Shown: piece after piece, positions 2,072 to 51,437 of the stretch
Layout of the letters: each line of letters starts with the position of its first letter
Numbering within the stretch: position 1 is the first letter of the stretch
Source: Candidatus Thorarchaeota archaeon
GTDB taxonomy: Archaea > Asgardarchaeota > Thorarchaeia > Thorarchaeales > Thorarchaeaceae
NCBI GenBank assembly: GCA_004376265.1
Contig: SOKL01000115.1
Location: 12,699 to 76,698, forward strand
Direction: 5' to 3'
Length of the DNA stretch: 64,000 nucleotides
The notes under the pieces: generated by a model
Seen by the model: the letters and a program-made list of their open reading frames with translations, nothing else
Told to the model about the DNA's origin: nothing
The model's database searches: none
Made by a program: the position numbers and the translations under genes

Positions 2072-2079
2072 ATGATAAG

Positions 2080-2376: not shown

Positions 2377-2838
2377 ATGACTGGGAAGAGAATCTTAGCA
2401 GCGGGAAAGTTCGACATCCTTCATCTTGGTCACATCGCCTATCTCGAACAAGCAAAGGAGCTTGCTGGAGAAGAAGGGGAATTAGTTGTTGTCCTAGCAC
2501 TCGATAAGACAATTGAGAGGGAGAGAGGTGCTCCACCGGTTTTCCCTCAAGAACAGAGACGGAAGATAGTAGAGTCTTTAGTTTTTGTTGACAAGGCAAT
2601 CATTGGACTTGATACTAATGATCATACTATCATTGTGGAGCAAATCAAACCGGATATCATTGCTCTTGGATTTGATCAGTATACCGATGCCCGTGCTCTC
2701 GAGAACCTTTTTGTGGAGAAGGGTTTGAACACAAAGATTGTGCGATTGGAGAAACGTGATGCGGATGGACTTTGTTCATCAACTCTAATCAGAAAGAGAA
2801 TAATCGACTACTATAGAGAGAATGGAAGACCACTCTAG
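2377..2838 (+). CDS. ribL: cytidylyltransferase-family nucleotidyltransferase, RibL-like FAD synthase
   Basis: AAGKFDILHLGHIAYLEQAKELAG carries the HxGH nucleotidyltransferase motif. At about 150 aa it is typical of archaeal RibL. ATG 2377 fits the family N-terminus better than TTG 2350. Confidence 0.6.
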   Translation: MTGKRILAAGKFDILHLGHIAYLEQAKELAGEEGELVVVLALDKTIERERGAPPVFPQEQRRKIVESLVFVDKAIIGLDTNDHTIIVEQIKPDIIALGFDQYTDARALENLFVEKGLNTKIVRLEKRDADGLCSSTLIRKRIIDYYRENGRPL

Positions 2839-2841
2839 TTG

Positions 2842-4209
2842 TTAGATTAGCAGTTCACCCCTTGCTTCAGCTTCGCGATTAATCGCGGATCTTTTCTCTG
2901 AACGTTCAAACTCCCATTTCCAAATCTTGTATGCTACAGCTGTTAGGAAGCCAATAAGGAATAGCCCTATCAGAGTTATCCACCATTGTAGAGGAAAATG
3001 TTCAAGGAAGTCAGGTAAAGGATATGCAATGAAATAAGGCCAATTACAGAGAATACCAAACGCATACAGAAGACCCACAACAGTGATTTGTTTCATATAT
3101 CCTATTGCATGTTTGTCTTTGTCAAAAAGAACCACGACTATACCAAGCCAGTATAGATACCAAGGCATGACCCATCGGAAAACAAAGAGTACTCCAGGAA
3201 GTAGATAGAGGTAGAAAGGTTTGAGCTCTAGAAGCTTCAGCCGTATAGATTTCCCTTCGAAATCACTTTTTGCAGGGAGGTATGCTCGTATGGTATATAG
3301 CATGAAGAAAACGTAGATGACTAGTGGAATCAGAGCAGGAAACCACGTGTGGAAAGTCACCGGATCAGTGACAAACTCAGGGGTGCCAATAGCTAAACCT
3401 GGATACAAGGGATTGACTATATAGGAACTATATTCCGATGTGTTGAATATATGTGAAAACAGTGAATCAAAACTGGCTCCGAAGAATGTTGGAATCACAG
3501 TCACACCCAGCGATAGTATGAACCAAATGGCTGAAACGGGGTTTCCAAGAAAGAATACAGGAAACGCTACTACAGGGTAAATCTTTGTCTGTACTCCCAG
3601 TCCAAGCGCGAACATAGCCTTGCCATGCTGTTTTTCTCTCCATAAGACAAATGACATCAAAAGCAAACAATCTACTAACGGTTCTAGCTTGCCTCCTCCA
3701 GCAGACATGATGATACCATAGATGAAATAACCTCCAAAGAACATCCTCGCCCAAAACTCAGTTTTTATCTTGTCACGTAATAGAATCGCAAGCAACACTA
3801 GGTTTAGATTGAAGACTAGGACTAGTATGAAATTGAGCCACAATTGCTGTAATCCACCGGCCCCTGGGAATATCCACGTAGCTATCGCGAAGAAGAATAG
3901 TCCAAATATGGGGTACTCGTAATTCACATTTGTAAGATAGTCGGGTAATGTATGCTCGCCGTCATCAAAGTTCCACTCTGGATGAATTTCAGTAATCCGT
4001 TCAACCAGGTAGGTATCATTCATCTGATAGATATCAAAACCGAATATCCAGAAAGCTTCACCATACATCTCGTTCCGGTTTCGGTCTCGTTGGATGACAA
4101 GAATATCAGCAAGGGGTATTGCGATCAGTGAGATTACTAGACTAAGTACTAGATACTTGCGGTATTCATAGATGCTTAGGCTAATTGCAGACAGCATTAC
4201 ACGTGCCAA
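2842..4209 (-). CDS. polytopic membrane protein, possible GT-C-type glycosyltransferase
   Basis: 455 aa with more than 10 predicted hydrophobic helices rich in aromatic residues. It neighbours sugar-modifying genes. No catalytic motif was confirmed. Confidence 0.55.
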   Translation of the reverse strand: MARVMLSAISLSIYEYRKYLVLSLVISLIAIPLADILVIQRDRNRNEMYGEAFWIFGFDIYQMNDTYLVERITEIHPEWNFDDGEHTLPDYLTNVNYEYPIFGLFFFAIATWIFPGAGGLQQLWLNFILVLVFNLNLVLLAILLRDKIKTEFWARMFFGGYFIYGIIMSAGGGKLEPLVDCLLLMSFVLWREKQHGKAMFALGLGVQTKIYPVVAFPVFFLGNPVSAIWFILSLGVTVIPTFFGASFDSLFSHIFNTSEYSSYIVNPLYPGLAIGTPEFVTDPVTFHTWFPALIPLVIYVFFMLYTIRAYLPAKSDFEGKSIRLKLLELKPFYLYLLPGVLFVFRWVMPWYLYWLGIVVVLFDKDKHAIGYMKQITVVGLLYAFGILCNWPYFIAYPLPDFLEHFPLQWWITLIGLFLIGFLTAVAYKIWKWEFERSEKRSAINREAEARGELLI

Positions 4210-30094: not shown

Positions 30095-32716
30095 TCATTT
30101 TCGTGAAGTAAATCCATCGTAGGGATATCCCTCATAGGTGTCAGAAGATGTGTATCGTTTCAGAATCCAGAGCGCTGTTATAGTTCCCATAATCGCTATA
30201 ACACCTAATCCGATCCACCCTAGGTTTGATACCAAATATTGTATCGCCCCCACACTTGGGTCCAATGGATCAAAGCCATTATTGTGTTCCCAAGAATCTA
30301 GATAGCCATCTTCATCACTGTCAGCAAGTGTTGGATTTGTACCAATCCAGAACTCCTGCAAATTAGTCAAATCATCCATATCCGGGTCTAGATGACTGTC
30401 ATCTACTAACGGATTGAGTGAATATTTTACTTCCCATGCATCGGGCAATAGGTCAAAATCGGTGTCAGGATTGAGTGGGCTAGTACCATAGATGAACAAT
30501 TCAGCTGAGTCAGATAAGGAATCAGAATCTGTATCATTTGTAAGCGGGCTAGTACCTGCGAGATACTCATCCAAGGCTGAGAGATCATCTTCATCATTGT
30601 CCTGTAAACTATCGTCGACCAACGGATCTAATCCATACTGAACTTCCCATCCATCAGGGATGGAATCCGAGTCCGAATCGTTATTCAAAGGATCTGTGAA
30701 ATAGAAATTAACTTCAGAACCATCAGTAAGATTATCTGAGTCTGCATCAGGATTGTTAGGAGGTGTACCTAATTCGAACTCAGTTCTTGAAAGAAGTTCA
30801 TCTTCATCACAATCATGTTCTAGGATCCAGAACCCACAATCAATGTCAATCACATAGATAAAACCGTCATTGTAAAAGGAGTCTATTGACAGTCCGTTAG
30901 TTTCGTATGAACCCACCTCGGTGATATAAGTAGAGTTCTGAGCATTGAGAATTCGAAGCCCAACCCCTTCAGCAGCAACAAAAAACAGTTCATTGTCAAC
31001 ATATACTCCGCGAACATAACCTGGTACACTGTACTCCCAGATTAATCCAGGATTTGCAGGATCGGATGTGTCGAAGACCTTAACACCAAAGTTTGCAACT
31101 GTCACAACTGTGATATTGTCTTTTACATGAATTCCTGTTTTTGTACCATAGATTGTGATGCTACTGTACCGAGTGGGATTATTAGGAATACTAACATCAA
31201 CTATCACCATACCTCCTTCATGGATATAGTACACATAGTCACCAGACTTGTCGAGTGTTTCAACATCGGACCCATAGGATCCAACTTCATATGGACTTGC
31301 AGGATTACTGATATCAACAACCACCAGTCCATCTATACCACATGCAAGGTATGCAAATTGCTGATCTACATGAACATCATATGTGTAGGTGGATGTTTTA
31401 CAATTGCCTAGGAGGGTGATATCTTGGGGATTTGTAACATTGAGGATCAATAGCCCGTTGTCTCTATCAGCTACATATGCGCGATTATCAACGACGAAAA
31501 CTTCTATAGCGTGACCCGGTGTTCTGTAGTTTCCAACTTCTACAGGATATGTTGCATCGGATATGTTTACAACCCTTAAACCAGCGAGATTATTTGCGAT
31601 ATACGCATAATCTCCATTCACAAACATACCCCTGGCACTTCCACCTGTAATATGGTTTCCAACTTCTAGCGGACTAAGCAAATTTCCAGCATATATGATA
31701 CTCAACCCTCTTTCAGAAACAGGAACGTAAGCGTAATTTCCGTTAACGATAACATCGTAGCCAGGTCCTGATATCGCGCAGCGTCCTAGTGGACTAGGAG
31801 TATTTGGAGAGGTGACATTGAATATCGAAAATGCACCATCTCCTTCGTTGGGATCTCCTTCTGAAACAAAAGCAGTACCGCCTACAACTTTGACATCGGA
31901 TGAATATTCTATTGTGTCATGATGACCAACCTGAGTTGGTGATGAAGGGTTATTTACATCAATAACGTGAAGTCCACCATATCCACTTGCAAGAAAGACA
32001 TGATTTCCTTCATAGGCTATTCCCAACGATGGCCATTCAGTATCGTAATATCCTATCTCTGTAGGACTTTCTTTAACACTAACATCAAACACACGAATAC
32101 CACCGTAGCTATCGGATGCATAGACAAAGTCGCCGACAACAACAAAATCAGTTAGTTTTCCAGAGGTATCACATTGACTTATCTCAACGGGTGCTGCTGG
32201 GTCACTTACATTGACAAGTACAAGACCACGATAGCTAATGATTACATAAGCAACCTCGGATTCGACGTAAACCCCCAACGCCCAAGCTGGAGTTCTTAGA
32301 TAGCTAATTCTCTTGGGAGCAAAGACATTGCTGATGTCGATTATTTGGAGCCCACCAAGTCTAGTGGCTGTATAGACATAGTCGCCCTCTGCATATATTC
32401 CCTCAACCACATACCCCAAGAAAACGCTTGATACGTGAGTAGGTTGAGTGGGATTTGATATATTCAGAATCTCCATTTGACGTCCATTTCCAATATAGGC
32501 TAAACCACCATCAACAAATACAGCATTACAGGGACCAATTGTCCAATTTCCAGTAGCTACAACATTTTCATTTGATATTTGAGCTTCTTGTATCTTAGAA
32601 AATGATGCTGTGTTGTCTAATGGTTCAGCGATAGAAGAAACTCCTACTTGCACTTGCATCACACCCAAAATGAGAGAAACAATCAGAAATGTATGTACAA
32701 GTGCTAGTTTAGACAT
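30095..32716 (-). CDS. large surface protein: LVIVD-repeat beta-propeller region plus thrombospondin-type-3-like Asp-rich repeats plus C-terminal TM anchor
   Basis: There are at least 10 repeats of the type GLQIIDISN, GLVLVNVSDPAAP, GLHVIDVNNPSSP, GLVVVDISNPASP. These are followed by DxDxDxxxD repeats (DPDADSDNLTDG, NNDSDSDSIPDGWE, TNDTDSDSLSD, ADSDEDGYLDSWE). It has a signal peptide and a C-terminal TM. Start at ATG 32716. Confidence 0.8.
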   Translation of the reverse strand: MSKLALVHTFLIVSLILGVMQVQVGVSSIAEPLDNTASFSKIQEAQISNENVVATGNWTIGPCNAVFVDGGLAYIGNGRQMEILNISNPTQPTHVSSVFLGYVVEGIYAEGDYVYTATRLGGLQIIDISNVFAPKRISYLRTPAWALGVYVESEVAYVIISYRGLVLVNVSDPAAPVEISQCDTSGKLTDFVVVGDFVYASDSYGGIRVFDVSVKESPTEIGYYDTEWPSLGIAYEGNHVFLASGYGGLHVIDVNNPSSPTQVGHHDTIEYSSDVKVVGGTAFVSEGDPNEGDGAFSIFNVTSPNTPSPLGRCAISGPGYDVIVNGNYAYVPVSERGLSIIYAGNLLSPLEVGNHITGGSARGMFVNGDYAYIANNLAGLRVVNISDATYPVEVGNYRTPGHAIEVFVVDNRAYVADRDNGLLILNVTNPQDITLLGNCKTSTYTYDVHVDQQFAYLACGIDGLVVVDISNPASPYEVGSYGSDVETLDKSGDYVYYIHEGGMVIVDVSIPNNPTRYSSITIYGTKTGIHVKDNITVVTVANFGVKVFDTSDPANPGLIWEYSVPGYVRGVYVDNELFFVAAEGVGLRILNAQNSTYITEVGSYETNGLSIDSFYNDGFIYVIDIDCGFWILEHDCDEDELLSRTEFELGTPPNNPDADSDNLTDGSEVNFYFTDPLNNDSDSDSIPDGWEVQYGLDPLVDDSLQDNDEDDLSALDEYLAGTSPLTNDTDSDSLSDSAELFIYGTSPLNPDTDFDLLPDAWEVKYSLNPLVDDSHLDPDMDDLTNLQEFWIGTNPTLADSDEDGYLDSWEHNNGFDPLDPSVGAIQYLVSNLGWIGLGVIAIMGTITALWILKRYTSSDTYEGYPYDGFTSRK

Positions 32717-32889
32717 TACAGAGCTCTCATCAACACAACACATCCGTTTGTTAATAATCTTGACAAAATAGCATCATCGTACTATTTCAAATCAATGACC
32801 TGAAACTACAATGGAAGCTGCATTGATAACCTCTCAAGTATAGTACCGAGGTAGGGATTTCGCAAGACACCGAAAAGGAGTGTTGAAAA

Positions 32890-38369: not shown

Positions 38370-39110
38370 ATGAATTTAGCCAAAAAGATATTCAAGACTG
38401 CCCATGAGGAGGGTAGAACTTTTGTCCTAGAGCATGAAGCGAAGGACATAATGAAGGCATATGGTATCCCAATCCCTGCTTATGCAACAGCAAGTACAGC
38501 TGACGAAGCAGTCACCAAATCAAAAGAGATTGGATTTCCTGTGGTGCTTAAAATTCTCTCTAAGGATATTCTGCACAAATCTGATGCGGGAGGAGTCAAA
38601 ATCAACCTCAAAGATGAGGACTCTGTTCGAAAAGCATTCGATGATATCATGGAGAACGCGACAAATTACGGAAAAGAAAAGGGAATTGAGGTTGACCTCA
38701 GTCGTGGTGTATTCATCTCGGATTTTGTAGACATGGGCACCGAGATTATCGTAGGAGTAACAAAGGACCCGCAATTTGGGCATGCTCTGATGGCAGGATT
38801 GGGAGGGATCTTTGTAGAGGTTCTCAAAGATGTGTCATTTAGGTTGATACCATTCACTGAGGTGGATGCGAGAGAGATGCTAGGTGAACTCAAAGCCTAC
38901 AAGATACTCGAGGGTGTTCGAGGTCAAGAACCTCGTGACGTGGATTCATTAATCAATGTCATGCTAGCAGTATCCAAGATGATTGTGGAGAATCCTGAGA
39001 TAACCGAACTAGACTGTAATCCAACTTTTGTATATGAAAAAGGAAAGGGCTCATTGGTCGTAGACGCTAGGATACTAATTGGTAATTCAGATTCAACTAC
39101 TAGCCACTGA
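38370..39110 (+). CDS. acdB: ADP-forming acetyl-CoA synthetase beta subunit (ATP-grasp)
   Basis: LEHEAKDIMKAYGIPIP...IGFPVVLKILSKDILHKSDAGGVKINL is the typical ACD beta / ATP-grasp_5 pattern. About 245 aa. Confidence 0.85.
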   Translation: MNLAKKIFKTAHEEGRTFVLEHEAKDIMKAYGIPIPAYATASTADEAVTKSKEIGFPVVLKILSKDILHKSDAGGVKINLKDEDSVRKAFDDIMENATNYGKEKGIEVDLSRGVFISDFVDMGTEIIVGVTKDPQFGHALMAGLGGIFVEVLKDVSFRLIPFTEVDAREMLGELKAYKILEGVRGQEPRDVDSLINVMLAVSKMIVENPEITELDCNPTFVYEKGKGSLVVDARILIGNSDSTTSH

Positions 39111-40305
39111 TCAAGTAATGAAGAAGAATAAGTCCTTTCTTGAGATCGAGGTCAGTGAGTGGAGCTTCTGGTGAAACCTTAGCCTTACTCGCAAGTAGAA
39201 GCAATAGAGCCACTAATCTGGGGACAAGGCGAGCATATTGAAGTAAGAAGTCTTTGTTACCAGTGGAGTCTACAACAAGACCTTCTAATCTCCTGATCAG
39301 GAGTTTGATTCTTTCTTCAACACCTTCTCCTAATTTAAGACCCTGGAATATCTGGGCTGCAGCCGATTCATCCTGAAGAAACTCTGAGGAGATACCGATT
39401 TTATCAAACATCTCAAGCGCGCCAATAATCATAGAATCATAATGTTCATCTTCAAGACGTTCGATTCCCTGCTTGACAGCTTGAACCTGCCCTAACAACC
39501 GTATCGAATTGGTCAGAATTGTGCGAGAAGCACCTGATGTTGAGGACGCCATTCCAGCAAGTTGGTCTTTGTGAACATTCTCAAGACGTGCAGCCACTGA
39601 TTCATTGAGTTTCTTGTCAAACCCCGGAGAAACGCCAACATTGGCAGCTTGGGGGAGTATTGTGTGAGACCCGAGTCTACGAATTGTAGTAAGTGTTGTG
39701 AAGTCTTCAACGGGGGTATGGAAGAAAAGAATGCGGATTATATCATATCCAGTTTCAAAGTCAGCTTCAGTGGTCACGTTTCTACCCTGTGCCTTGCACG
39801 AAAATGCACTGAGCAAAGCCCACGACGAGAGCAGATCCTCTCGGAGCTCCCCTTGTAGTGCAGAATTTGCTAGTTCATGTTCCACGAGGAATCGAGATAG
39901 CTTGTCAGCAGCAGTTGTCGCTCTCTGAAGTGTTGCCCCACTCAGTTGTAAATCTGCAATTGATTTGATGAACTCCCTTGGTTCACGAGATGGGGGACGG
40001 AGGACAAAACCAGGGTCCTTCCTTGACATTAACCACCACTTCGAGGAAGATGTGAAGTAATCTAGCACATCAATTGCCACCGTAACATCTGAGAGTGTTG
40101 CAACATCTCGTCCGTCAAGGTATGCCACTAGACGAGTGAATATTCTAACGAACCGGGTAAGATGAACAGAAATCTTCTCACCTACGAATTGGCTGTCAGT
40201 GAATCTTGATACTATAGTTTCAATCTGACCAGGTATGGATTCCTCTAGTTGTGTGAATAACAAACCTCTGTAGACATCTACGGGGCTTCTAGACAAAAAC
40301 CTCAA
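39100..40305 (-). CDS. hypothetical, predominantly alpha-helical protein
   Basis: 401-codon ORF with a TTG start, lying 63 nt downstream of uppS on the same strand. No family was recognised. Confidence 0.6.
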   Translation of the reverse strand: MRFLSRSPVDVYRGLLFTQLEESIPGQIETIVSRFTDSQFVGEKISVHLTRFVRIFTRLVAYLDGRDVATLSDVTVAIDVLDYFTSSSKWWLMSRKDPGFVLRPPSREPREFIKSIADLQLSGATLQRATTAADKLSRFLVEHELANSALQGELREDLLSSWALLSAFSCKAQGRNVTTEADFETGYDIIRILFFHTPVEDFTTLTTIRRLGSHTILPQAANVGVSPGFDKKLNESVAARLENVHKDQLAGMASSTSGASRTILTNSIRLLGQVQAVKQGIERLEDEHYDSMIIGALEMFDKIGISSEFLQDESAAAQIFQGLKLGEGVEERIKLLIRRLEGLVVDSTGNKDFLLQYARLVPRLVALLLLLASKAKVSPEAPLTDLDLKKGLILLHYLISG

Positions 40306-41209: not shown

Positions 41210-41590
41210 CTAAATCATTTTCGAAATCTTCTCTGCAGCACGTTTCATATCTAAGAATATGAGACCTAGCTTAGCGTTTGCAGTTGTGGAAACTGTCAGA
41301 CAAGCGTTGACTCCAGCTGCTGTGACCAATAACCAACCATCGACACCCTTGACATTAACTTGTTCAAGATTACCTTTCCCAAGCTCTATTGCTGCCCTCT
41401 CACCAAGACTCAACATAGCAGCAGTCATGGCCGCGACCTTTGCCTCGTCTACGTCTGTAGGAAGAGCTGAAACGATTGGTAACCCTTCTACACTGACGAT
41501 GGCACAGGCTTCGATCTCGGGAATACTTCCCTGCAGTTCATTCAGAACGCCTTCGAGTGTATTTTCGCGGGTTTCTCCCATTGGCTTCAC
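41210..41590 (-). CDS. Roadblock/LC7 (MglB-like) protein
   Basis: IPEIEACAIVSVEGLPIVSALP..DEAKVAAMTAAMLSLGERA...GWLLVTAAG.. is the Roadblock pattern. It starts 6-15 nt after the MglA-like gene. Confidence 0.85.
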   Translation of the reverse strand: MKPMGETRENTLEGVLNELQGSIPEIEACAIVSVEGLPIVSALPTDVDEAKVAAMTAAMLSLGERAAIELGKGNLEQVNVKGVDGWLLVTAAGVNACLTVSTTANAKLGLIFLDMKRAAEKISKMI

Positions 41591-41596: not shown

Positions 41597-42169
41597 TTAC
41601 TTATACATCCTTTTCAAAATAACTTCTCTGGCTATTGCTTGGAATGCTCTCTTTACTCCTACGCCTTGCACTGCAATGGTTTCGTAGATAGGTACATTCC
41701 CACCAAGACCAAGGAGATCTAGCATCTCATCACGTGACATCCTATTCGGTAGGTCTCGCTTGTTGAGCATGACCACTATCGGAACATGACGTCCAAGTTC
41801 ATCTCCAAGGAACATCTTCAGCTCCTCAAAGCTCTCTATATTCTCCTCGCGCTGATCTGGTGAAGAGTCAGCAACAAAGAGAATTCCATCAGTACCCTGT
41901 AGCACTACTTTCCTCTGGTGTCTGTGTCGCTTCTGTCCGGCTACTGTGAAGACATCGAATAGGACTCTGCCGCCGGCGGACATAGGAACGTAATCGAAGA
42001 AGAGCGTACGATTTGTTTCATCTTCAATAGCAGTGAACTCACCCTTCTGCAGCCCTTCAACTTTTCCATAGAGCCAGCGAAGAGCAGTTGTCTTACCACC
42101 AAGGGACGGACCATAGAATACCAGTTTGAGATGAATGCGTCCCTTGTCGTCTTTTCGAATTGTAAACAC
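41597..42169 (-). CDS. mglA: MglA-family small Ras-like GTPase
   Basis: KLVFYGPSLGGKTTALRWLY, NRTLFFDYVPMS, FTVAGQ (Thr in place of the Ras-type Asp, as in MglA TVPGQ), GILFVADSS and LNKRDLPN. By recall these align closely with Myxococcus MglA. GTG start. Confidence 0.9.
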   Translation of the reverse strand: MFTIRKDDKGRIHLKLVFYGPSLGGKTTALRWLYGKVEGLQKGEFTAIEDETNRTLFFDYVPMSAGGRVLFDVFTVAGQKRHRHQRKVVLQGTDGILFVADSSPDQREENIESFEELKMFLGDELGRHVPIVVMLNKRDLPNRMSRDEMLDLLGLGGNVPIYETIAVQGVGVKRAFQAIAREVILKRMYK

Positions 42170-42344: not shown

Positions 42345-43013
42345 TCATTCTAATGCCTTTCTAATCTTGGCTACAAGGGCCTGTATTTTAGCTGGGTCTG
42401 GATTGTTCAAGTCTATGTTTCTCCATGGTATTCTAAGAATTTTCATCCCTCTACTCCAGTGATGTTTCTGTTCGTAAATTTCCTCAAGAAGCAGAAGATA
42501 CTCACGCTCCAGCTCTCCCAGATATTCTCTGAAGCTGTCATCTGGCATGGGACTCTCTGCGTCCCTTGCTCTTTTCCTCGCTCGTTGGTAGGCCTCATCT
42601 GGATGTACGTCAAGGTACAACAGCAAAGTGGGTGGCACCAACGACTGGTGCAAGATATTGTAAGCCACTTCGTAGGTGTCCCAGTCTATCTGCTCTATAT
42701 GACCTTGTTGTGTCAATAGCTTGGCGAAGACCCGATCGCCGGGGAGTCCACGGTCTACGATGTATCCCTCGGGACCTCCATCGACATAAGCTGAGTAGGC
42801 AGCCCTTTTCTGCAAGGCAAATCGTTTGTGTAACAACAGTATCTGCATGGGGAAGGCCCACTTGCTCATGTCTGCGTAGAACATCTTAAGGTAGGGATTT
42901 TGATCGACGGGTTCGTTGAGCCCCTCGTAATTCAGTTCTCTGCATAGGATTTTAGTTAGTTCAGTCTTTCCGGCTCCTATGATGCCTTCGACCCATATTA
43001 CTGGTTTAGTCAT
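42345..43013 (-). CDS. deoxynucleoside kinase family protein
   Basis: P-loop EGIIGAGKTELTK, VDRGLPGDRVFA (DRS/ERS-like), and an Arg-rich lid (QRARKRARD). About 220 aa. Confidence 0.8.
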   Translation of the reverse strand: MTKPVIWVEGIIGAGKTELTKILCRELNYEGLNEPVDQNPYLKMFYADMSKWAFPMQILLLHKRFALQKRAAYSAYVDGGPEGYIVDRGLPGDRVFAKLLTQQGHIEQIDWDTYEVAYNILHQSLVPPTLLLYLDVHPDEAYQRARKRARDAESPMPDDSFREYLGELEREYLLLLEEIYEQKHHWSRGMKILRIPWRNIDLNNPDPAKIQALVAKIRKALE

Positions 43014-43210: not shown

Positions 43211-43675
43211 CTAGACTCGTTCGAGTTCTGCGAGTGCTGATTTCAAATCCTCTTCGTCAAGTTCGCTTTCTTTTGGTGAGAGTGGTTCTACTGCAAGGAA
43301 TTTGTCAAGCTCATCAGCAAGCTGAGCGCCCTGTTTCTTCATGACAAGTCGTATCATTCCAATGTTGACCGACTCCTCTGATACAACACAAAGAACACCC
43401 TTTCCACACGCAGATGCAAAAATCTTGCCCTCTGAGAACTCGGAAGTGACTATCTCAAGCTCCCCAATCTGCAGGTTCTTGCCCTGTTCTTCGCTTGCAC
43501 AAAAGACTGCCGATGCGATTGCCCCTATACTATCCACATCTACGGGGTAATAGGAGAGCTTCGATACATTGGCGATTGTCAATCCAGTTTTATCCACTAG
43601 GATAACTTTTCGTATCCCCTTTTCTTGACGAATCACTTCTGTAAGGATCTTGTCGAAAACTTTCGCCTCACTCAT
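43211..43675 (-). CDS. Roadblock/LC7 domain protein with acidic C-terminal tail
   Basis: IRKVILVDKTGLTIANVS...DSIGAIASAVFCASEEQG...GVLCVVSEE, followed by the tail SPKESELDEEDLKSALAELERV. Confidence 0.85.
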   Translation of the reverse strand: MSEAKVFDKILTEVIRQEKGIRKVILVDKTGLTIANVSKLSYYPVDVDSIGAIASAVFCASEEQGKNLQIGELEIVTSEFSEGKIFASACGKGVLCVVSEESVNIGMIRLVMKKQGAQLADELDKFLAVEPLSPKESELDEEDLKSALAELERV

Positions 43676-43690: not shown

Positions 43691-44107
43691 TCATTCATTA
43701 TTCTTGAGGACAACCAATATTATGCCCTCACTCACTTCCGGTGCGATATTAATCTGACCCTTCGTTGTGTCAAGAGTCAGAAATGACAGTGATCCCTCCT
43801 GAAGTTCGCGCACAGCATCTAATGCCTTACCAACGAGGGAGGTTATTATTGCAGCGACATTCTCTGTAGTTTCGGCGTCCAGATCACTACTAAGTGGCAG
43901 ACCGTCCATGGTAGTCACGACAACTCCACGGACACCTTCTTGCGACTTAATCCTGGAAAGAATCCCTTGAAGTTTTTCTTGACTAATCAACTTACAGTAT
44001 CCTCGCTGTGTCAACTGTTCATTAACATCTACGCCGCAGTTAACTATTTTAGACTTGTGGAGATATGTTACCACTCCATATGTGTCGTTTGCGCATTCGG
44101 TGAGCAT
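43691..44107 (-). CDS. Roadblock/LC7 domain protein
   Basis: VRGVVVTTMDGLPLSSDL...ENVAAIITSLVGKALDA...GIILVVLK. The start is uncertain: the longest ORF begins at 44155, Met at 44107, or TTG at 44014. Confidence 0.75.
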   Translation of the reverse strand: MLTECANDTYGVVTYLHKSKIVNCGVDVNEQLTQRGYCKLISQEKLQGILSRIKSQEGVRGVVVTTMDGLPLSSDLDAETTENVAAIITSLVGKALDAVRELQEGSLSFLTLDTTKGQINIAPEVSEGIILVVLKNNE

Positions 44108-44178
44108 ATGGTGTTGTGTTACATGAAAAATAGTAGAGGCCGTGGGAAAAAACACGGCCTGTATTGTAATACATAGAA

Positions 44179-45804
44179 CTATACGTCGTCCACGTCGTCA
44201 TCAAAGAGCTTCTTTGAGCTTCTCTTCATTTGAGCAAGGCTACCAGTGAAGGCTCTATCAGCAGCTCCTGAAGGAGCGGCTTCGGGTGCTGCTGCAATCA
44301 TTGCTTCCTGTCGAACAATCTCCTCTTCCTCGTTGTTTAGGACATTGTCAGTCTTGTCTAGCATTGCTTTGACACTTGCAGGTGCACTCTTTGCCCTACT
44401 CTTCAGAGCTTTTCTGAAGGAGGCAATGCGTTTCCGGCCCTTCTCCCTTTCACCGCTGAAGGATTCCTCTCCGGCCTTCTGGGTGACAAAGGTCGCACCC
44501 ACTGTCGGATCGAGGGTTTTCATGATTTCCTCTTCCTTCTTCGACACACGAAGTTTAGTAGTTACTGCACGGACTCTCCGTGCACCTTTCTCGTCAGTAT
44601 AGGTTACTTGAACCTGTATTGGGATTTCGGCTTCCTTGATCTCTTTCTCGGGTTCTACCTCGAAATAGAGTTCATGATCTTCTCCTACGACTCCGATCTT
44701 GCTTTTACTCTTCTTCTTGAGCTGGTCAACAACCGCTCTTGAAACCCCAGAGGCATCTTTGATTATCACTCCAGGAGGTGTGATAAGGCGTACTTCAACA
44801 TCTCTTCCCAGAAGTGTAGCGCCTGCAAGCTCTGAGAGGCTTTTGTCAAGCTCGCTTGGTGTGACATAGTACATCTGGCCGCCTGTGGCCTCGGGCAATA
44901 GGCCCAAGGTCTGAAGTTCCATGCCCCTACCTGACGCGATGCCAACAACATCAACAGCTGTTCCTTCATCAAGGAACATCTTACCAATGTTTCCGTAGTA
45001 TTCGTCCGCAGGAGTGACTTGATAGCCCTCAAGGGCGCCAATTCCTTCATTAGCTAGCCCGTCAGTAAGTAGAACAACTCTACCAACATTACGATGTTTC
45101 GCTATCACGAACGCCATTGCGACTGCGGGACCAAGTGCTGTTCCACCTTTGTCTCGAAGTGCTTGTATGTGTGTCTTCAGCTTGTCCTTATTCTTGCCAA
45201 CACTTACTAACTTCACATCGTCAAGGAGTTTCTTTGTAGAATCCATGATGTCTTGGAGACTTGCAAACGAGTCTCTCGGAAGCTCAACTGGATTTCCATT
45301 CTCAAGATTTCGAGCCACAACGGAACTCTCAAACTCAATTAGACCGAACATCGTGTCTGGCGCATTTGCAGCAAGGCTGTCAATCGATGTGTTCAGACTA
45401 CGTTTTACAGCAGCAAGGTTTGCGCCTGCCATTGATCCCGAAACATCAATGAGTCCAAGGAAAGAACGTCCACCTACGGAAATTGTTTCGGTGTCTGTGC
45501 TTGGGTCTGGGGGAGGTTTGATTACGAAATCGGTGTCATCACCTGCAACAACCACTTCACCCTCTATCACATTCAAAGTTCCACAGAATGGGCATACAAA
45601 GTGCTTACCCACCTTTGAATCCTCTTTGATTTGGTCCACACTAAGAAGGAAACCATTGCACTTGTGGCATGCTATTGGTTTTCCTACGATCTTTGTTGTC
45701 TCATGCGCTAGATGACCAAATTCTACACGCAAAACGAAAGGAATGTCGCTCAGGACTTTCTTTGATGCAGGAAAGGTTTCTGAGCTAGTTCTCAACATAG
45801 GCAT
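44179..45804 (-). CDS. zinc-ribbon / vWA(trunk-like) / beta-sandwich protein with Sec23/24-like architecture
   Basis: CHKC-x21-CPFCGTLN, vWA MIDAS DVSGS, LLTDGLANEG, ..LLPEATGGQMYYV, and IQVQVTYTDEKGARRVRAVTTKLRV. It has a charged C-terminal tail. Confidence 0.8.
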   Translation of the reverse strand: MPMLRTSSETFPASKKVLSDIPFVLRVEFGHLAHETTKIVGKPIACHKCNGFLLSVDQIKEDSKVGKHFVCPFCGTLNVIEGEVVVAGDDTDFVIKPPPDPSTDTETISVGGRSFLGLIDVSGSMAGANLAAVKRSLNTSIDSLAANAPDTMFGLIEFESSVVARNLENGNPVELPRDSFASLQDIMDSTKKLLDDVKLVSVGKNKDKLKTHIQALRDKGGTALGPAVAMAFVIAKHRNVGRVVLLTDGLANEGIGALEGYQVTPADEYYGNIGKMFLDEGTAVDVVGIASGRGMELQTLGLLPEATGGQMYYVTPSELDKSLSELAGATLLGRDVEVRLITPPGVIIKDASGVSRAVVDQLKKKSKSKIGVVGEDHELYFEVEPEKEIKEAEIPIQVQVTYTDEKGARRVRAVTTKLRVSKKEEEIMKTLDPTVGATFVTQKAGEESFSGEREKGRKRIASFRKALKSRAKSAPASVKAMLDKTDNVLNNEEEEIVRQEAMIAAAPEAAPSGAADRAFTGSLAQMKRSSKKLFDDDVDDV

Positions 45805-45997: not shown

Positions 45998-46363
45998 ATG
46001 GTGGATCAATCAAAGATAGAACAAATTGTTTCTGATACGATGGCTGCTAATGCAGATTTAGAAGGCATTATAATATGCGATGCCAAAGGAAAGGTGCTTT
46101 TTGGCCACACATTAAGTGCGGGAACAAAGCACTCAGATATTGCAACCCTTGCCGTACAAATTGCCGCTAATTCCTCCCAGCTCTCCGCAGGTCTGGACAA
46201 GGGAGGTCTAAAGGAAGTAAGTATTGCATCAGATAGCGGTTTCATTGTCATCCTTGGTGATGTAAAAATTGTACTTGCTGGAATAGCAGGTGAAAGTGCA
46301 CGTGAGTCATTGGGTCTTCTTAGAATGGCCTTGCGGCGCGCGTTAGTGTCGATAGTTGGTTAA
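45998..46363 (+). CDS. Roadblock/LC7 domain protein
   Basis: LEGIIICDAKGKVLFGH...DIATLAVQIAANSSQLS...GFIVILGD. It is divergent from the Sec23/24-like gene. Confidence 0.85.
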   Translation: MVDQSKIEQIVSDTMAANADLEGIIICDAKGKVLFGHTLSAGTKHSDIATLAVQIAANSSQLSAGLDKGGLKEVSIASDSGFIVILGDVKIVLAGIAGESARESLGLLRMALRRALVSIVG

Positions 46364-46562: not shown

Positions 46563-49500
46563 TTGGTTCACATTGAGAAGCTTGTATGCAAGGGCTTCAA
46601 ATCGTTCGGACGAGATTCAGTCAGTATTAAGCTCAATGAGGGATTCACCTGTATTGTAGGTCCCAATGGGTCAGGTAAATCGAATGTTGTTGACGCAATC
46701 CTATTTGTCCTGGGTCAGCTCAGTGCTAAGACTCTAAGGGCCACTGTCTTCTCAGACCTTCTATACTCACCGCCCAAGCCACACATGCCACCTAAGGCAA
46801 AATCTGCGGTTGTAGAGCTTCACTTTAACAACAAGGACCGCGAGTTACAGATTGATGCAGACCGTGTAGTGATTGAGAGGCAGTTAGATGACACTGGAAA
46901 ATCAGTGTGTCGAATCAATGGAAAGGTTGTTACTCGAACTGCAGTTCTTGATGTATTAGGCGCTATTGGAGTGGATCCGAACGGCTACAATCTTGTCCTC
47001 CAGGGTGAGATTGCCCAGATGGTCAAAGTCAATCCAAACGAACGTCGAAAGCTGGTTGAAGAGATTGCAGGTATTTCTGCTTATGATGAACAAAAAGATC
47101 GTGCTATGAAAAAACTCTCTGAAAGCGAAGTGAATCTGGGCAAAGTGGACATGCAGCTGCAGGAACGTCGTCGACAGTTGGAAAAACTTGATGAAGAGAT
47201 GTCTGATGCACGGCGTTACCAAAATCTCAATGACCAGATAAGAAAATACAGAATCGATATTCTTGCTTGGAGTACTATCAAAGGGAAATCGAGAATTGAA
47301 ACCATCAACGAAACACTTGCGCTCAGAGCGGAAGAGGCGGAGAGTCTGGTCAAGGAATTCGTCGAGGTAGAGAATGGCATTACTACAACAGACACTGAGA
47401 TTGAAAAAATAGACCATGATATTGACGAGATCACTGGAGGTGACTCAACCCGAATATCTGAGCAATATGGTGTCGTGTCTGCAGCAGTCAATCATGTGAA
47501 AGGTGACCTTGAAAGGGCACAAGAAGAGTTTGATAGAGCATCAGAAGAACGTAAATCTCTTAGTGAAGAACTTGAAACTACTCAAGATGAGATCAGCCAC
47601 AATGAGCAAGTGATGAAGGAGAAGAACAGCGAACTTACCGACCTAGAGAAAGAGATTGCTGGCACCGCAGCTCAAGTAATTCGGTTAGAAGACCTGTCTG
47701 AGAAGTCACAAGCAGCTTATTATGAAACAACTCTTAGACTTCAGGACCTGAACAACCAAATGCGTCACCTAGACGAAGGGGTTTCAGAGACCAGGTCAAC
47801 GATAAAATCAGATAACAGAGAATTAGGACTTGCGTATGAGGAAGTGCGAGATGCCACTGAGAGCCGTCAGACTACAGATAACGAGATTGCAGAGTTAAAG
47901 GAAAGTATTCCCGAAAAGAAATCTGAGTTCGAACAGTCTGAGGACCTTGAAAAGACAAAGCAGGCTGACATTGACAGCCTAACAAAACAACTCTCCACTG
48001 TGGATGCTGAAGTCACTGAAAGCGCTAAGATTGTCTCTCAGACAAGAGAAGAACTCATCAAAGTGCAAGCCCGGCAAGATGCCCTGAAGGAGGCGGAAGA
48101 TGCGTTTCTAAAGAGGCGCCGTGCGATTGCGATGGTCTTGAAACTAAGAGATTCTGATGTCATCAGTGGGATTCACGGGACTGTGGCTGAGCTTGGGACT
48201 ATTGACCCAGACTATTCAGTGGCACTGGAGATTGCTGGAGGAAACAGACTTTCTCACATTGTTGTTGAAAACGAACAAGTTGCAACTGAATGTGTGCAAG
48301 TATTGAAGACGGAAAAAGTTGGAAGAGCTTCTTTCATTCCTCTTGATAAGATTAAGACACACCCGCCCGGCAAGTTACCTAAGGATGACGGGGTTATTGA
48401 TTTTGCTCTGAATCTGGTCAAATTTGAACCAAAGATGCGTCCGGCCTTTGAATTCGTGTTCTCGAACACCATTATCACCGAGGATTTTGATACCGCAAAA
48501 CGTCAGGGATTCAGCGGACAGAGAGCAGTTTCTCTTGATGGAGACCTGGTTGAGCGTTCGGGATTAATGACAGGAGGTTATTTCCAAAAGGCTGCTGTGG
48601 GACTATCTCTTCAGGTTAAAGATACTAGCCCTCAGATTAGTGAGCGCCTTCAGGGGCTTGAGGATATACTTACTGACCTACGGGATAAACAGACTTCACT
48701 TCGTAAAGAAAAGAGCGCTAATGAAAAGGAAGTCCAAGAACTCGAAAAGACAAACTATCGTTTCCAAATGGAACTGAATAGACTTGAAGAACGTTTAGAA
48801 GAACAAGAATCAAAATCGGAACTATTGAGAGAGAGAATAGACAAGGCTAACCTTACGATTAATGAATTAGAAGCTCAAGTCAAGGAACTTCAAGAGCGAG
48901 ATGATGAACTCAGTGTTCAACGTGAAAGAGTACGAGCTCAGAGAGATGATGCCAATCAAGCCTTAGTCTCTACCGATGCCAACAAACTCAATCAAGAGAT
49001 TAAAGACCTGAAAGAAGTTCAAGAACAATATCAAAAGCAAAGAGAGAAACTACAGAGCGAGATTAGCTCTCTACGTGTGGCTCTAGATGAAAGACTTGGA
49101 CCAAAGGCAATTGATTCGGAAGCCAAGATTCATTCCCAAGATTCAATAATCCCAGGTCTTGAAGAAGAACAAAAACGACTACAGATGGGACTCTCAGAGA
49201 GAGAGGCTGAGTTTGAGAAACTCAAAGAAGAGAGAGAGCAAATTGATGATGCGGTGAAGGACAAACGTGTCCGTCAATTAGAATTGAAGGAGGAACTTCG
49301 AAACTTTAGGTTGAGACATGAGGAGATTCGAGAGGCACAGACCTCTAATGAGAAAGCAGTGTACCGTCTTCAGACGGAACAGAACCGGCTTGAAACTGAA
49401 ATTGTTGCATTTGTAGCTGAGTTGAATACCGTAGCAAACACTCAGGAAGCTCTTGAGGAGAAGGAAGATCAGCGCGAGCTCACCTACAAGGAAATCGAGG

Positions 49501-50153
49501 AGTTGGAAGAGAAGATCAAAGAGGTTGAGCGTGAACTCGAGGCCATGGGTCCAGTAAACCTCAAGTCGCTCACTGACTATGACATGGAGAAAGACAAGTA
49601 CGAGGAGATTGTTGACAAAAAGACTCGGCTTGAGAATGAACGCAATGAGATTCTCGTTTTCATGGAGGAATTAGAAGCAGAAAAGACTCAGAAGTTCCTG
49701 ACGGTCTACAACGAGATTGCAGACAATTTCTCTAAGGTATTCGGGCAACTCTCACCGGGTGGTGAGGCAACCCTATTGCTCGAGAACCCTGAGCATCCTT
49801 TGATGGGTGGGATTACTGTGAGATCTAAACCGCAAGGAAAAGAGCTTGTCACTTTGGATGCAATGAGTGGTGGAGAGAAGACAATCACTGGTCTAGCTCT
49901 CATCTTTGCCATTCAGATGTACAGTCCAGCAAGCTTCTACATATTCGATGAGATTGATGCGGCTCTTGACAATGTCAACGCTCACAATGTTGCCCTACTC
50001 ATATCAAAGATGTCAAAGAACTCGCAGTTCGTTGTTGTATCATTGAGAGATACAACAGTTCGAAAAGCTGACTTGTTGGTGGGAGTGTCGAATCAGGATG
50101 GTATCTCAAGGATTGTTGCAGTTGATTTGAAGGAGGTTGCGGCACCATCATGA
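46563..50153 (+). CDS. smc: chromosome segregation protein SMC
   Basis: N-terminal KGFKSFG..GPNGSGKSN, a long coiled coil with a hinge, and a C-terminal signature MSGGEKT plus Walker B YIFDEIDAALD. TTG start. Confidence 0.95.
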   Translation: MVHIEKLVCKGFKSFGRDSVSIKLNEGFTCIVGPNGSGKSNVVDAILFVLGQLSAKTLRATVFSDLLYSPPKPHMPPKAKSAVVELHFNNKDRELQIDADRVVIERQLDDTGKSVCRINGKVVTRTAVLDVLGAIGVDPNGYNLVLQGEIAQMVKVNPNERRKLVEEIAGISAYDEQKDRAMKKLSESEVNLGKVDMQLQERRRQLEKLDEEMSDARRYQNLNDQIRKYRIDILAWSTIKGKSRIETINETLALRAEEAESLVKEFVEVENGITTTDTEIEKIDHDIDEITGGDSTRISEQYGVVSAAVNHVKGDLERAQEEFDRASEERKSLSEELETTQDEISHNEQVMKEKNSELTDLEKEIAGTAAQVIRLEDLSEKSQAAYYETTLRLQDLNNQMRHLDEGVSETRSTIKSDNRELGLAYEEVRDATESRQTTDNEIAELKESIPEKKSEFEQSEDLEKTKQADIDSLTKQLSTVDAEVTESAKIVSQTREELIKVQARQDALKEAEDAFLKRRRAIAMVLKLRDSDVISGIHGTVAELGTIDPDYSVALEIAGGNRLSHIVVENEQVATECVQVLKTEKVGRASFIPLDKIKTHPPGKLPKDDGVIDFALNLVKFEPKMRPAFEFVFSNTIITEDFDTAKRQGFSGQRAVSLDGDLVERSGLMTGGYFQKAAVGLSLQVKDTSPQISERLQGLEDILTDLRDKQTSLRKEKSANEKEVQELEKTNYRFQMELNRLEERLEEQESKSELLRERIDKANLTINELEAQVKELQERDDELSVQRERVRAQRDDANQALVSTDANKLNQEIKDLKEVQEQYQKQREKLQSEISSLRVALDERLGPKAIDSEAKIHSQDSIIPGLEEEQKRLQMGLSEREAEFEKLKEEREQIDDAVKDKRVRQLELKEELRNFRLRHEEIREAQTSNEKAVYRLQTEQNRLETEIVAFVAELNTVANTQEALEEKEDQRELTYKEIEELEEKIKEVERELEAMGPVNLKSLTDYDMEKDKYEEIVDKKTRLENERNEILVFMEELEAEKTQKFLTVYNEIADNFSKVFGQLSPGGEATLLLENPEHPLMGGITVRSKPQGKELVTLDAMSGGEKTITGLALIFAIQMYSPASFYIFDEIDAALDNVNAHNVALLISKMSKNSQFVVVSLRDTTVRKADLLVGVSNQDGISRIVAVDLKEVAAPS

Positions 50154-50872
50154 TGGATGACAACTCACCCTTCTGGGCAACTCCACCATACATTCTTCTC
50201 ACAGATGTCCTACAACTGGATAAGGTTGAGCCTTGGAACGTAGATGTTGGCAAACTTGTCGGTAAATTCCTAGACGAGATGAAAAGACTGGGGGATATTG
50301 ACTTCCGCATATCTGGGAACGCATTATACTCTGCTTCTGTGATATTCATGAGGAAGACCAGAGAACTTGTACAACTCGGACTCTTGCCACCTGAGGAGAT
50401 TGAGGATGATGGAGAACTGGAAATTCCACTCATTCGCCCACCTTTCAGATTGACCAACAGACGGATAACATTAGAAGAACTACTCATTGCCATGGACCAT
50501 GTCCTAAGCAAGGGAGATAGACGTCGTTCCACTCCGACAAAACGGAAGTACAAATCAAAGGCAGATCCACTGACATTTCAGATGAATGTTGACCAAGCTA
50601 ACATCGAGGAAACAATTGCAGCCGTTTATGATGACATTTGTAGAATCATGAAGATAGGTGAAGCGACCAAGTTCGTAGATATACTGATGACCAATACACG
50701 ACAAGAGATCGTACGTGTGTTCTTCTCACTACTGTTTCTTTTTGAACGGGCATACATAGATATCTGGATGGATGAGGAGAGTGTCATCTGGGTGAAGCTC
50801 TTAGACCAGCCTGAGATTACAAAGGATGATGAATCATCCGAAGAGCAAATACAACCAGAAATCAAGACATAG
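50150..50872 (+). CDS. scpA: segregation and condensation protein A (kleisin)
   Basis: There is an ATGA overlap with the smc stop. ..VEPWNVDVGKLVGKFLDEMK.. is ScpA-like, and the size fits. Confidence 0.85.
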   Translation: MMDDNSPFWATPPYILLTDVLQLDKVEPWNVDVGKLVGKFLDEMKRLGDIDFRISGNALYSASVIFMRKTRELVQLGLLPPEEIEDDGELEIPLIRPPFRLTNRRITLEELLIAMDHVLSKGDRRRSTPTKRKYKSKADPLTFQMNVDQANIEETIAAVYDDICRIMKIGEATKFVDILMTNTRQEIVRVFFSLLFLFERAYIDIWMDEESVIWVKLLDQPEITKDDESSEEQIQPEIKT

Positions 50873-50882
50873 GGTGATCTGA

Positions 50883-51437
50883 TTGGATGAAGACATGATA
50901 ACTCTAGAAGCCGCACTCTATGTGTCTGGAAGAGCCCTAACCCTGGATGAACTGTCGAATATCATTGGGAAATCACAATCTACTGTCCAGAAATTACTGG
51001 ATGACCTTAGTTTCGAGTATAACCAGAAAGGTGGTGCTCTTGAGGTAGTCGCCTTGCCCAAGGACCGATATGTTTTGCAGCTCAAACCAGAATTAACTCC
51101 TAGAGTTGGCAAACTAATACCAGGTGGTCTTCTATCCTTTGCATCTCTTCAGACTCTGGTGTTCATCGCACTAAAACAACCAATCATACAGTCAGAACTA
51201 GTTGCACAACGTGGAACCCACTCTTACGATCATATCAGAGATATTGTCGAGAAAAAATTTGTTGACGCTATTCCCGAAGGTCGTTCAAAATTGCTAACAA
51301 CGACCAAGCTCTTTGCAGACTACTTTGGTCTAGACAGCGATCGCATCAAACTCAAAGCTCAACTCAAATTCAAAATGAAGAAGATACTTGATGATCAGCG
51401 TGAGTTTGAAGAAACTGCTGGCATAACTCATGGTTAG
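50883..51437 (+). CDS. scpB: segregation and condensation protein B
   Basis: LEAALYVSGRALTLDELSNI... and ..LVFIALKQPIIQSELVAQRG form the tandem wHTH typical of ScpB. The start is TTG 50883 or ATG 50895. Confidence 0.85.
   Translation: MDEDMITLEAALYVSGRALTLDELSNIIGKSQSTVQKLLDDLSFEYNQKGGALEVVALPKDRYVLQLKPELTPRVGKLIPGGLLSFASLQTLVFIALKQPIIQSELVAQRGTHSYDHIRDIVEKKFVDAIPEGRSKLLTTTKLFADYFGLDSDRIKLKAQLKFKMKKILDDQREFEETAGITHG

Follow-up and report, generated by a model that had tools for sequence, protein, structure and literature searches.

A Thorarchaeota Sec23/24-like protein with a complete metal-binding site resembles, among eukaryotic proteins, the cpRAS-VWA/VWA-only family most closely

We analysed a 64,000-nucleotide stretch of DNA (the window) from a Candidatus Thorarchaeota archaeon (GenBank assembly GCA_004376265.1, contig SOKL01000115.1, positions 12,699 to 76,698 of the forward strand), in which a gene on the minus strand encodes a Sec23/24-like protein. 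The protein is homologous to the COPII coat subunits Sec23 and Sec24 and combines a zinc finger, a trunk/vWA domain, a beta-sandwich and a C-terminal helical bundle. As judged from sequence, however, its closest eukaryotic relatives are not Sec23/24 but the proteins of the cpRAS-VWA/VWA-only family. Its open reading frame (ORF) lies exactly at 44179-45804 of the minus strand and has 541 aa, as a preliminary annotation made from the DNA letters alone (the sequence-only reading) had placed it. The translation contains all the motifs quoted there: the zinc-knuckle string IACHKCNGFLLSVDQIKEDSKVGKHFVCPFCGTLN (C46-x2-C49-x21-C71-x2-C74), the vWA strings FLGLIDVSGSMAG, MFGLIEFESSV, GGTALGPAV (GGT222ALGPAV) and VVLLTDGLANEG, the strings AVDVVGIASGRGMELQTLGLLPEATGGQMYYV and IQVQVTYTDEKGARRVRAVTTKLRV, and the C-terminal DDDVDDV. 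The sequences D120-V-S-G-S124 and LLTD248G and a TGG stretch were also read in the translation, and this set of motifs far exceeds chance.

For the comparison with Sec23/24, a family alignment and profile were built from 30 diverse full-length relatives, covering Thor-, Hermod-, Hod-, Freya- and Sigyn-type sequences together with two Entamoeba proteins. When the single sequence was searched against the PDB, Sec24 chains were the sole meaningful matches, at 20-27 bits; the 30-sequence profile reached yeast Sec24 at 1.8e-24, human Sec24A at 6e-22 and Sec23A at 1e-9. The alignment with yeast Sec24 was continuous, running from the zinc finger through the trunk and the beta-sandwich into ~40 residues of the helical domain. 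In the profile search the zinc finger aligned with that of Sec24, and its four cysteines (C46, C49, C71 and C74) were invariant in 30/30 family members. The family profile alignment began at position 8, opposite residue 46 of human Sec24A, and strands lie ahead of the zinc finger; Sec23/24 have the same arrangement, and their N-terminal strands form part of the beta-barrel. Among the Pfam models, Sec23_trunk matched the 541-aa protein at 5.5e-11 (43 bits against a gathering score of 27), Sec23_BS at 2.1e-7 (31.9 bits, slightly under the gathering score of 33.5) and zf-Sec23_Sec24 at an E of 0.0049 (17.3 bits, below the gathering score). Across the family, Sec23_trunk matched 28/30 members, Sec23_BS 28/30 (best 7e-10) and zf-Sec23_Sec24 24/30 (best 5e-5). 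NCBIfam models yielded solely a sub-threshold partial match, to a sortase-target model in the vWA region.

The structural comparison gave the same answer. An AlphaFold2 (AF2) model computed from the family alignment had a mean predicted local distance difference test score (pLDDT) of 88.9 and a predicted template modelling score (pTM) of 0.89. When this model was compared with the PDB by Foldseek, the first 46 matches were all Sec23 or Sec24 chains, with E values from 5e-30 to 8e-21 and template modelling (TM) scores of 0.65-0.76 normalised to the query and 0.5-0.58 normalised to the target; a Catenulispora vWA protein and then the ArnAB complex followed. Pfam, profile and Foldseek results thus agree with the sequence-only reading that N-terminal strands, C4 zinc finger, trunk/vWA and beta-sandwich follow one another as in Sec23/24, and the Pfam and Foldseek searches that it had proposed recovered Sec23/24, not generic vWA proteins.

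In favour of a generic kind of prokaryotic vWA protein (BatA, ChlD or YegL type), resembling Sec23/24 through the vWA fold alone, the Pfam VWA and VWA_2 models also match, and some relatives carry names such as "VWA domain-containing protein", "YegL" or "Mg-chelatase subunit ChlD". We nevertheless consider this identity effectively refuted by the Sec24 profile alignment and by Foldseek, and give it almost no credence: a single continuous alignment with Sec24 goes beyond the vWA domain to include zinc finger, beta-sandwich and the first part of the helical domain, and the top structural matches are all Sec23/24. The top 150 relatives are Asgard and eukaryotic, with no bacterial vWA protein identified among them as far as they could be named, and an apparent zinc-finger-less match that was checked proved to be one gene, on a eukaryotic contig, that had been called in two pieces.

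An exhaustive search of 1.8 billion representative proteins returned 981 relatives. Some 45 archaeal proteins (~500-550 aa) ranked first and were followed by ~105 longer proteins at E values of 1e-35 to 1e-22. The longer relatives that could be named were all eukaryotic, from Diadema, Entamoeba, Batillaria, Pyxidicula, a choanoflagellate and stramenopiles; they include a sea urchin "circularly permutated Ras protein 1-like" protein and proteins of Amoebozoa and a mollusc. Their Pfam architecture comprises a Ras domain (in some), zf-Sec23_Sec24, VWA/Sec23_trunk and Sec23_BS, and the VWA-only proteins of Entamoeba, at 520-547 aa, are near the Thorarchaeota protein in length. A Ras-like domain was present in 21/120 of the eukaryotic relatives. 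These proteins correspond to the cpRAS-VWA and VWA-only family defined by Elias & Novotny in 2008 (PMC2430557), which includes CPRas1 of Dictyostelium and the VWFA proteins of Entamoeba. That family was possibly present in the last common ancestor of eukaryotes (LECA), and its function is uncharacterised (PMC2430557), so that it gives no functional transfer to the Thorarchaeota protein.

The difference in similarity between the two eukaryotic groups was large in every comparison. In the single-sequence search, eukaryotic cpRAS-VWA/VWA-only proteins scored 95-140 bits and Sec24 20-27 bits. With a profile made from archaeal sequences only, the median score of cpRAS-VWA/VWA-only proteins was 232 bits, as compared with 87 bits for yeast Sec24; profile positions ~22-530 of 538 were covered, bundle included. 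Taken together, the profile comparisons put the full-length similarity to the cpRAS-VWA/VWA-only family at 230-320 bits, against ~88 for Sec24. The reciprocal eukaryotic profile gave the Thorarchaeota protein 301.6 bits and yeast Sec24 57.9 bits; against the PDB, the eukaryotic cpRAS-type profile found Sec24A at 66 bits only. Between the archaeal and eukaryotic families, hhalign gave a probability of 100%, with an E of 1e-80 over 460 aligned columns. Neighbour-joining (NJ) trees, which were exploratory, with capped distances and long branches left out, grouped the eukaryotic cpRAS-type proteins with a bootstrap of 94, Sec24 with 100 and the archaeal proteins with only 56. Mean distances were 2.18 between archaeal and cpRAS-type proteins, 2.93 between archaeal proteins and Sec24, and 3.13 between cpRAS-type proteins and Sec24. 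By these sequence measures the archaeal family is a hub that lies near the cpRAS-type family and farther from Sec24.

The Thorarchaeota protein and the cpRAS-VWA/VWA-only proteins share the zinc finger with its four conserved cysteines, the vWA domain with an intact MIDAS (metal ion-dependent adhesion site), the beta-sandwich and the C-terminal helical module, and both are without a gelsolin domain. In contrast to cpRAS-VWA proteins, the Thorarchaeota protein is archaeal and carries no fused circularly permuted Ras; it starts directly at its beta-strands and zinc finger. Its source is Thorarchaeota, and the eukaryotic sequences form an NJ group of their own, with the bootstrap of 94 given above; it is a prokaryotic homologue and not a member of the eukaryotic cpRAS-VWA clade. 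A zinc-finger-less prokaryotic sister family was also considered among the matches of 390-490 aa. The one match traced, P0197, comes from an intron-containing eukaryotic contig (L055) on which a zinc-finger exon lies upstream of the trunk gene call, and this candidate family was rejected. On the same metagenome contig, the region 363-3181 holds this VWA-only relative as a zinc-finger gene call and a trunk gene call, an intron artefact. Next to it, on the opposite strand, is a small GTPase gene of the Ras/Arf type, which makes one anecdotal instance of GTPase adjacency in a eukaryote.

All five MIDAS residues (D120, S122, S124, T222 and D248) are present and were invariant in the 30-sequence family alignment, as the claim of an intact MIDAS had implied. 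That claim had also set the retained DxSxS motif against eukaryotic Sec23/24, and this part needs revision. The site is complete in the Thorarchaeota protein, but DxSxS is not distinctive: yeast Sec24 keeps D-x-S-x-S and the Thr and has Gly at the position of the last Asp, and in human Sec24A two MIDAS positions are occupied by Asn and Gln, Gln replacing the last Asp. As read from the alignments, the real contrast is between a complete and strongly constrained MIDAS in the Asgard family and a degenerate one in Sec24. Among near-full-length eukaryotic relatives, the full DSSTD set was found in 83/98, and the Thr and last Asp in 98/98.

The part of the protein beyond the beta-sandwich had been described as a charged tail of about 130 aa standing in place of both the helical and the gelsolin domains. 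The absence of gelsolin was confirmed; Pfam Gelsolin matched 0/30 family members at E<=1, and the protein stops at residue 541 after the helical bundle. The charged tail was not. The region measures ~120 aa (residues 421-541), and residues 424-535 form an ordered four-helix bundle, with pLDDT mostly >90, both in the full AF2 model and when modelled alone; the C-terminal 124 residues in isolation gave a pLDDT of 91.4. The bundle is conserved in the family, with a DPxxxxTxxVQxAGE block, an invariant Q442 and an R..S..LF motif near its end, and the C-terminus of cpRAS-VWA-type proteins is its homologue. The beginning of the Sec24 helical domain aligns with the first ~50 residues of the bundle, and the bundle alone, as a PDB query, found Toxoplasma Sec24 as its best match (E 0.0054). 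Pfam Sec23_helical matched 0/30 family members at E<=1. In Foldseek against the PDB, the isolated bundle, a short helical query and hence a weak probe, met generic helical bundles (best E 0.4), with no Sec23/24 chain among the 50 matches listed. The models thus suggest an ordered helical domain in the expected place, with partial homology to that of Sec24, and are inconclusive as to a canonical Sec23 helical identity. Model confidence is low at the acidic end, with pLDDT <50 at residues 537-541. The acidic end is confined to the Thorarchaeota protein and its nearest relatives; in most of the other family members the conserved R..S..LF is followed by a basic tail rich in K/R. It may be that the acidic end, FDDDVDDV, occupies the MIDAS of its own protein by folding back, as a ligand that autoinhibits.

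Compared with COPII Sec23/Sec24 as a whole, the Thorarchaeota protein has the same overall fold and the same order of strands, C4 zinc finger, trunk, beta-sandwich and helical start. It differs in having no gelsolin domain, a C-terminal bundle that is unrecognised as Sec23_helical, a complete MIDAS, and a neighbouring GTPase of the MglA type instead of Sar1.

Proteins of this kind have been noticed before. The first Thorarchaeota Sec23/24 homologues were reportedly described in a Nature paper of 2017. More than 120 clusters at >=79% identity match the protein, those with names coming from Thorarchaeota metagenome-assembled genomes (best match 97% identical), and the orthologue of strain SMTZ1-45, 88% identical, carries the NCBI name "SEC24 family transport protein". 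We collected 49 genome loci that hold a Sec23/24-like gene, nearly all labelled Thorarchaeota. Reviews and genome papers list Sec23/24 among the Asgard eukaryotic signature proteins; our protein is such an already-known protein, and the finding as stated by the sequence-only reading is not new. Passages of a recent paper (Nat Commun 2025; PMC11914678) describe models of Asgard Sec23-like proteins that have all Sec23 domains except gelsolin and that return Sec23/24 in Foldseek, and call these proteins "true ancestors" of Sec23. Ours belongs to the same protein family with the same gelsolin-less architecture, and the protein itself shows no difference from those published. The suggestion that it could be a minimal or ancestral-like form coincides, in its ancestral part, with an idea already in print for Asgard Sec23-like proteins in those passages (PMC11914678). 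In the passages considered here, that account discusses neither the vWA/MIDAS site nor any cpRAS-VWA relatives, and the Roadblock and MglA genes of the neighbourhood do not come up.

The gene context in Thorarchaeota is of interest for the small GTPase and the Roadblock/LC7 proteins that it contains (Table 1). Two Roadblock genes, RoblC and RoblB, directly follow the Sec23/24-like gene, with which they are very probably co-transcribed; an MglA-family GTPase gene and a third Roadblock gene, RoblA, lie beyond them, and a fourth, RoblD, stands on the other side in the opposite orientation. The Roadblock fold is that of GTPase regulators or platforms in the MglB and LAMTOR proteins. RoblB matched Pfam Robl_LC7 at 4.6e-10 and MAPKK1_Int at 1.3e-7, and NCBIfam MglB at 3e-6, far under the cut-off; it is 83-97% identical across Thorarchaeota loci. 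RoblD matched LAMTOR5 at 8.5e-5 and Robl_LC7 at 7e-4, both below the gathering score, and its position is kept in these loci. Against the PDB, the GTPase found MglA of Myxococcus and Thermus at 8.4e-39 (136 bits), as compared with Arf at 4e-13 and Sar1 at 2e-9 (40-53 bits). It also has the hallmarks of the MglA type, namely T in place of D in switch II (TVxGQ), an intrinsic Arg in switch I and an adjacent Roadblock gene. In the 36 Thorarchaeota loci with enough flank, the genes keep one order, namely Sec23-like, Roadblock, Roadblock, then after a variable gap MglA and Roadblock, and the Sec23-like gene, RoblC and RoblB are contiguous in every Thorarchaeota locus that extends far enough.

On this evidence we lean, with modest confidence, towards the Thorarchaeota protein being a MIDAS-dependent protein-protein adaptor of a small-GTPase switch, and neither a GTPase-activating protein (GAP) nor a proven coat. 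Mg2+ bound at the MIDAS would capture an acidic residue of the partner, as it does in canonical vWA/integrin I domains. The protein would be cytosolic, no signal peptide or transmembrane segment being evident by eye. In Thorarchaeota it would serve as a platform or effector together with the two Roadblock (MglB/LAMTOR-like) proteins, beside MglA and the Roadblock partner of MglA. The cpRAS-VWA fusions of eukaryotes, which join a Ras-like GTPase to this module, may show coupling to a GTPase in parallel. The Thorarchaeota protein is itself unlikely to be the GAP, because the gelsolin domain, and with it the catalytic Arg of Sec23, is absent, and because MglA has an intrinsic Arg and putative Roadblock-type GAPs. 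The gelsolin-like domain of Sec23 contributes a catalytic residue for GAP activity on Sar1, according to passages of PMC11914678.

It has also to be asked whether the protein is a working proto-COPII inner-coat subunit, a minimal ancestral Sec23/24 that is recruited to membranes by an Arf/Sar-like GTPase, selects cargo and drives budding. It has the fold and the domain order of Sec23/24 in profile and Foldseek comparisons, a small GTPase gene is nearby, and the published view, in the passages of PMC11914678 cited above, is of Asgard Sec23-like proteins as ancestors of Sec23. However, the region of the Sec23 catalytic arginine is absent together with the gelsolin domain, and the neighbouring GTPase is of the MglA type and not Arf/Sar (136 against 40-53 bits). 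No outer-coat gene and no paralogous partner was seen among the ORFs scanned within ~15 kb. Two features point to a different kind of partner binding, namely that the MIDAS is intact and that the protein is much more similar to the non-COPII cpRAS-VWA proteins, and the Asgard Arf binding described in passages of PMC11914678 was weak and nucleotide-independent. We therefore regard a working inner coat as improbable.

A further alternative is a signalling scaffold comparable to ArnB, in which a fused zinc finger-vWA protein and an MglA/MglB-like polarity switch would together control motility, surface structures or cell polarity, and not trafficking. Bacterial MglA and MglB control motility polarity, and the link of these proteins to motility polarity agrees with such a role. 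In Sulfolobus, ArnA (zinc finger-FHA) and ArnB (vWA, beta-sandwich, helical) form a pair that regulates archaellum expression via phosphorylation. ArnB has the same layout of a MIDAS-containing vWA domain, with metal in the MIDAS, then a beta-sandwich and then a helical domain, and the zinc finger of ArnA packs against it in trans (PMC12852372). Foldseek found the ArnAB complex (8s05) at an E of 2e-15 and the Catenulispora vWA protein (4fx5), which is of a similar type, at 4e-17, the family profile matched the MIDAS region of ArnB at 8.7e-13, and the conserved C-terminal R..S..LF could be a putative phosphorylation site. The match to Sec23/24 is far stronger, however (query-normalised TM 0.74 against 0.47; E 1e-30 against 1e-15). 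The zinc finger of the Thorarchaeota protein is in cis, as in Sec23/24, whereas that of Sulfolobus is supplied in trans on ArnA together with FHA, and the scanned part of the cluster showed no gene for an FHA-domain protein, a kinase or the archaellum. We consider an ArnB-like scaffold unlikely, although less so than a proto-COPII coat.

Several observations weigh against the adaptor reading that we prefer. The GTPase of cpRAS proteins belongs to the Ras family and not the MglA family, and is found in only the minority of eukaryotic relatives counted above (21/120). In yeast co-immunoprecipitations described in passages of PMC11914678, three Asgard Sec23-like proteins bound Asgard Arf, a GTPase of another class, weakly and independently of nucleotide. 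The Roadblock/MglA neighbourhood is absent at the homologues of Hermod- (L050/L051), Hod- (L052) and Freyarchaeota (L053) and at a 46%-identical relative (L054). On this ground we rejected a pan-Asgard operon, the non-Thorarchaeota homologues having unrelated neighbours, and since the Roadblock/MglA genes are absent beside them the linkage is restricted to one lineage. In Thorarchaeota themselves, UPPS and SMC, which are housekeeping neighbours, keep their places just as well, so that collinearity at the level of the class is by itself weak evidence and could stem from common descent instead of function. The Roadblock pair is parted from MglA by variable insertions that reach ~4 kb, and in this window by a deoxynucleoside kinase gene. 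Finally, the interaction of the adaptor with its partners is predicted from gene context, and ligand binding at the MIDAS from conservation only.

A wider scheme suggests itself, which we put forward tentatively and hold to be possible rather than probable. The Asgard Sec23/24-like proteins may be archaeal counterparts of a cpRAS-VWA/VWA-only family of probably LECA age, and not direct forerunners of COPII. The latter family would have kept the ancestral state, with an active MIDAS, no gelsolin domain and the same bundle, and Sec23/24 would be a paralogous branch that evolved fast, losing the last Asp of the MIDAS and gaining gelsolin. The ancestral role would then be that of a MIDAS-dependent adaptor coupled to a small GTPase, whose gene lies nearby in Thorarchaeota (MglA, with the Roadblock genes) and which eukaryotic cpRAS-VWA proteins carry in cis as a fusion.

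The Sec23/24-like genes of Asgard archaea have been used to argue that the eukaryotic vesicle-coat machinery is in part older than eukaryotes. If the cpRAS-VWA/VWA-only proteins are the nearest eukaryotic relatives, the presence of an Asgard "Sec23/24 homologue" says less about COPII-like budding than is usually assumed, and the focus moves to a metal-dependent, GTPase-coupled adaptor as the ancestral function. The kinship with cpRAS-VWA, the invariant MIDAS and the Thorarchaeota-specific Roadblock/MglA context together make a testable alternative to the "proto-COPII" reading, and they define a phylogenetic question, that of the timing of gelsolin gain and MIDAS loss. In the searchable literature we found no paper joining cpRAS with Asgard or Sec23, and no match for cpRAS-VWA proteins as the closest eukaryotic relatives, for the Roadblock/MglA packing of Thorarchaeota or for its absence in other Asgard lineages.

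Table 1. The Sec23/24-like gene, its parts and the neighbouring GTPase and Roadblock genes (positions in the window)
Feature	Position	Strand	Details
Sec23/24-like gene	44179..45804	minus	whole ORF including stop codon; 541 aa, 58 kDa, pI 5.6
N-terminal beta-strands, residues 1-40	45685..45804	minus	AF2 strands E4-6, E10-12, E23-28, E37-40
C4 zinc finger, residues 43-80 (C46, C49, C71, C74)	45565..45678	minus	Pfam, alignment, profile
Trunk/vWA domain, residues 114-315	44860..45465	minus	Pfam Sec23_trunk, VWA, VWA_2
MIDAS D120-x-S122-x-S124	45433-45447	minus	coordinates checked by translation
MIDAS T222	45139-45141	minus	checked by translation
MIDAS D248	45061-45063	minus	checked by translation
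Beta-sandwich, residues 331-421	44542..44814	minus	IQVQ..Y.D..G.rR.R signature, Q397 invariant; Pfam Sec23_BS, AF2 strands
C-terminal four-helix bundle, residues 424-535	44200..44535	minus	AF2, whole protein and domain alone
Acidic C-terminal end FDDDVDDV, residues 534-541	44182..44205	minus	low model confidence
RoblC, Roadblock/LC7	43691..44155	minus	23 nt downstream of Sec23/24-like gene; Pfam Robl_LC7 7e-16, LAMTOR5 8e-7
RoblB, Roadblock/LC7, MglB-like	43211..43675	minus	C-terminal acidic extension; 15 nt downstream of RoblC
MglA-family small GTPase	41597..42169	minus	P-loop GPSLGGKT, intrinsic Arg in RTLFFD, TVAGQ switch II, NKRD
RoblA, Roadblock/LC7	41210..41590	minus	6 nt downstream of MglA gene; Pfam Robl_LC7 1.4e-17
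RoblD, Roadblock/LAMTOR5-like, divergent	45998..46363	plus	193 nt upstream of Sec23/24-like gene

Some details of the neighbouring genes were also recorded. The start of RoblC is uncertain: the gene is a GTG-started ORF of 154 aa with its Roadblock domain at residues 65-150 and ~60 poorly conserved N-terminal residues, and tblastn matches in other loci start at differing offsets, which makes the annotated start or the N-terminal extension doubtful. MglA is 94-97% identical over the 36 Thorarchaeota loci, as compared with 60-90% for adjacent genes and 61-89% for the Sec23-like protein, a constraint that is unusually strong for a small GTPase. RoblA, which is kept beside MglA in Thorarchaeota loci, has a close solved relative in PDB entry 7f8m ("Robl_LC7 domain-containing protein", E 7e-25). 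That entry may be related to the Thorarchaeota Roadblock protein crystallised by Tran et al. 2024 (PMC10933270). The interval between the Roadblock pair and MglA is an insertion hot spot, holding from ~0.2 to ~4 kb of other sequence in related loci. In this window it contains the deoxynucleoside kinase gene at 42345-43013 on the minus strand (Pfam dNK 1.3e-37), for which none of the 49 related Thorarchaeota loci showed a counterpart in tblastn.

Directly beyond RoblD, at 46563-51437 of the plus strand, lies a chromosome-condensation operon of SMC (1196 aa), ScpA and ScpB, which is syntenic in Thorarchaeota loci. Downstream of UPPS, a 401-aa ORF (39100-40305, minus strand) without a Pfam or NCBIfam match keeps its place in the Thorarchaeota loci, where it is 39-82% identical, and may or may not belong to the GTPase cluster. 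Farther away, at 30095-32743 of the minus strand, an 882-aa protein is encoded in which multiple LVIVD repeats (2e-64) occur together with one TSP3 repeat of the bacterial kind; it is probably of the beta-propeller type and located at the surface or secreted.

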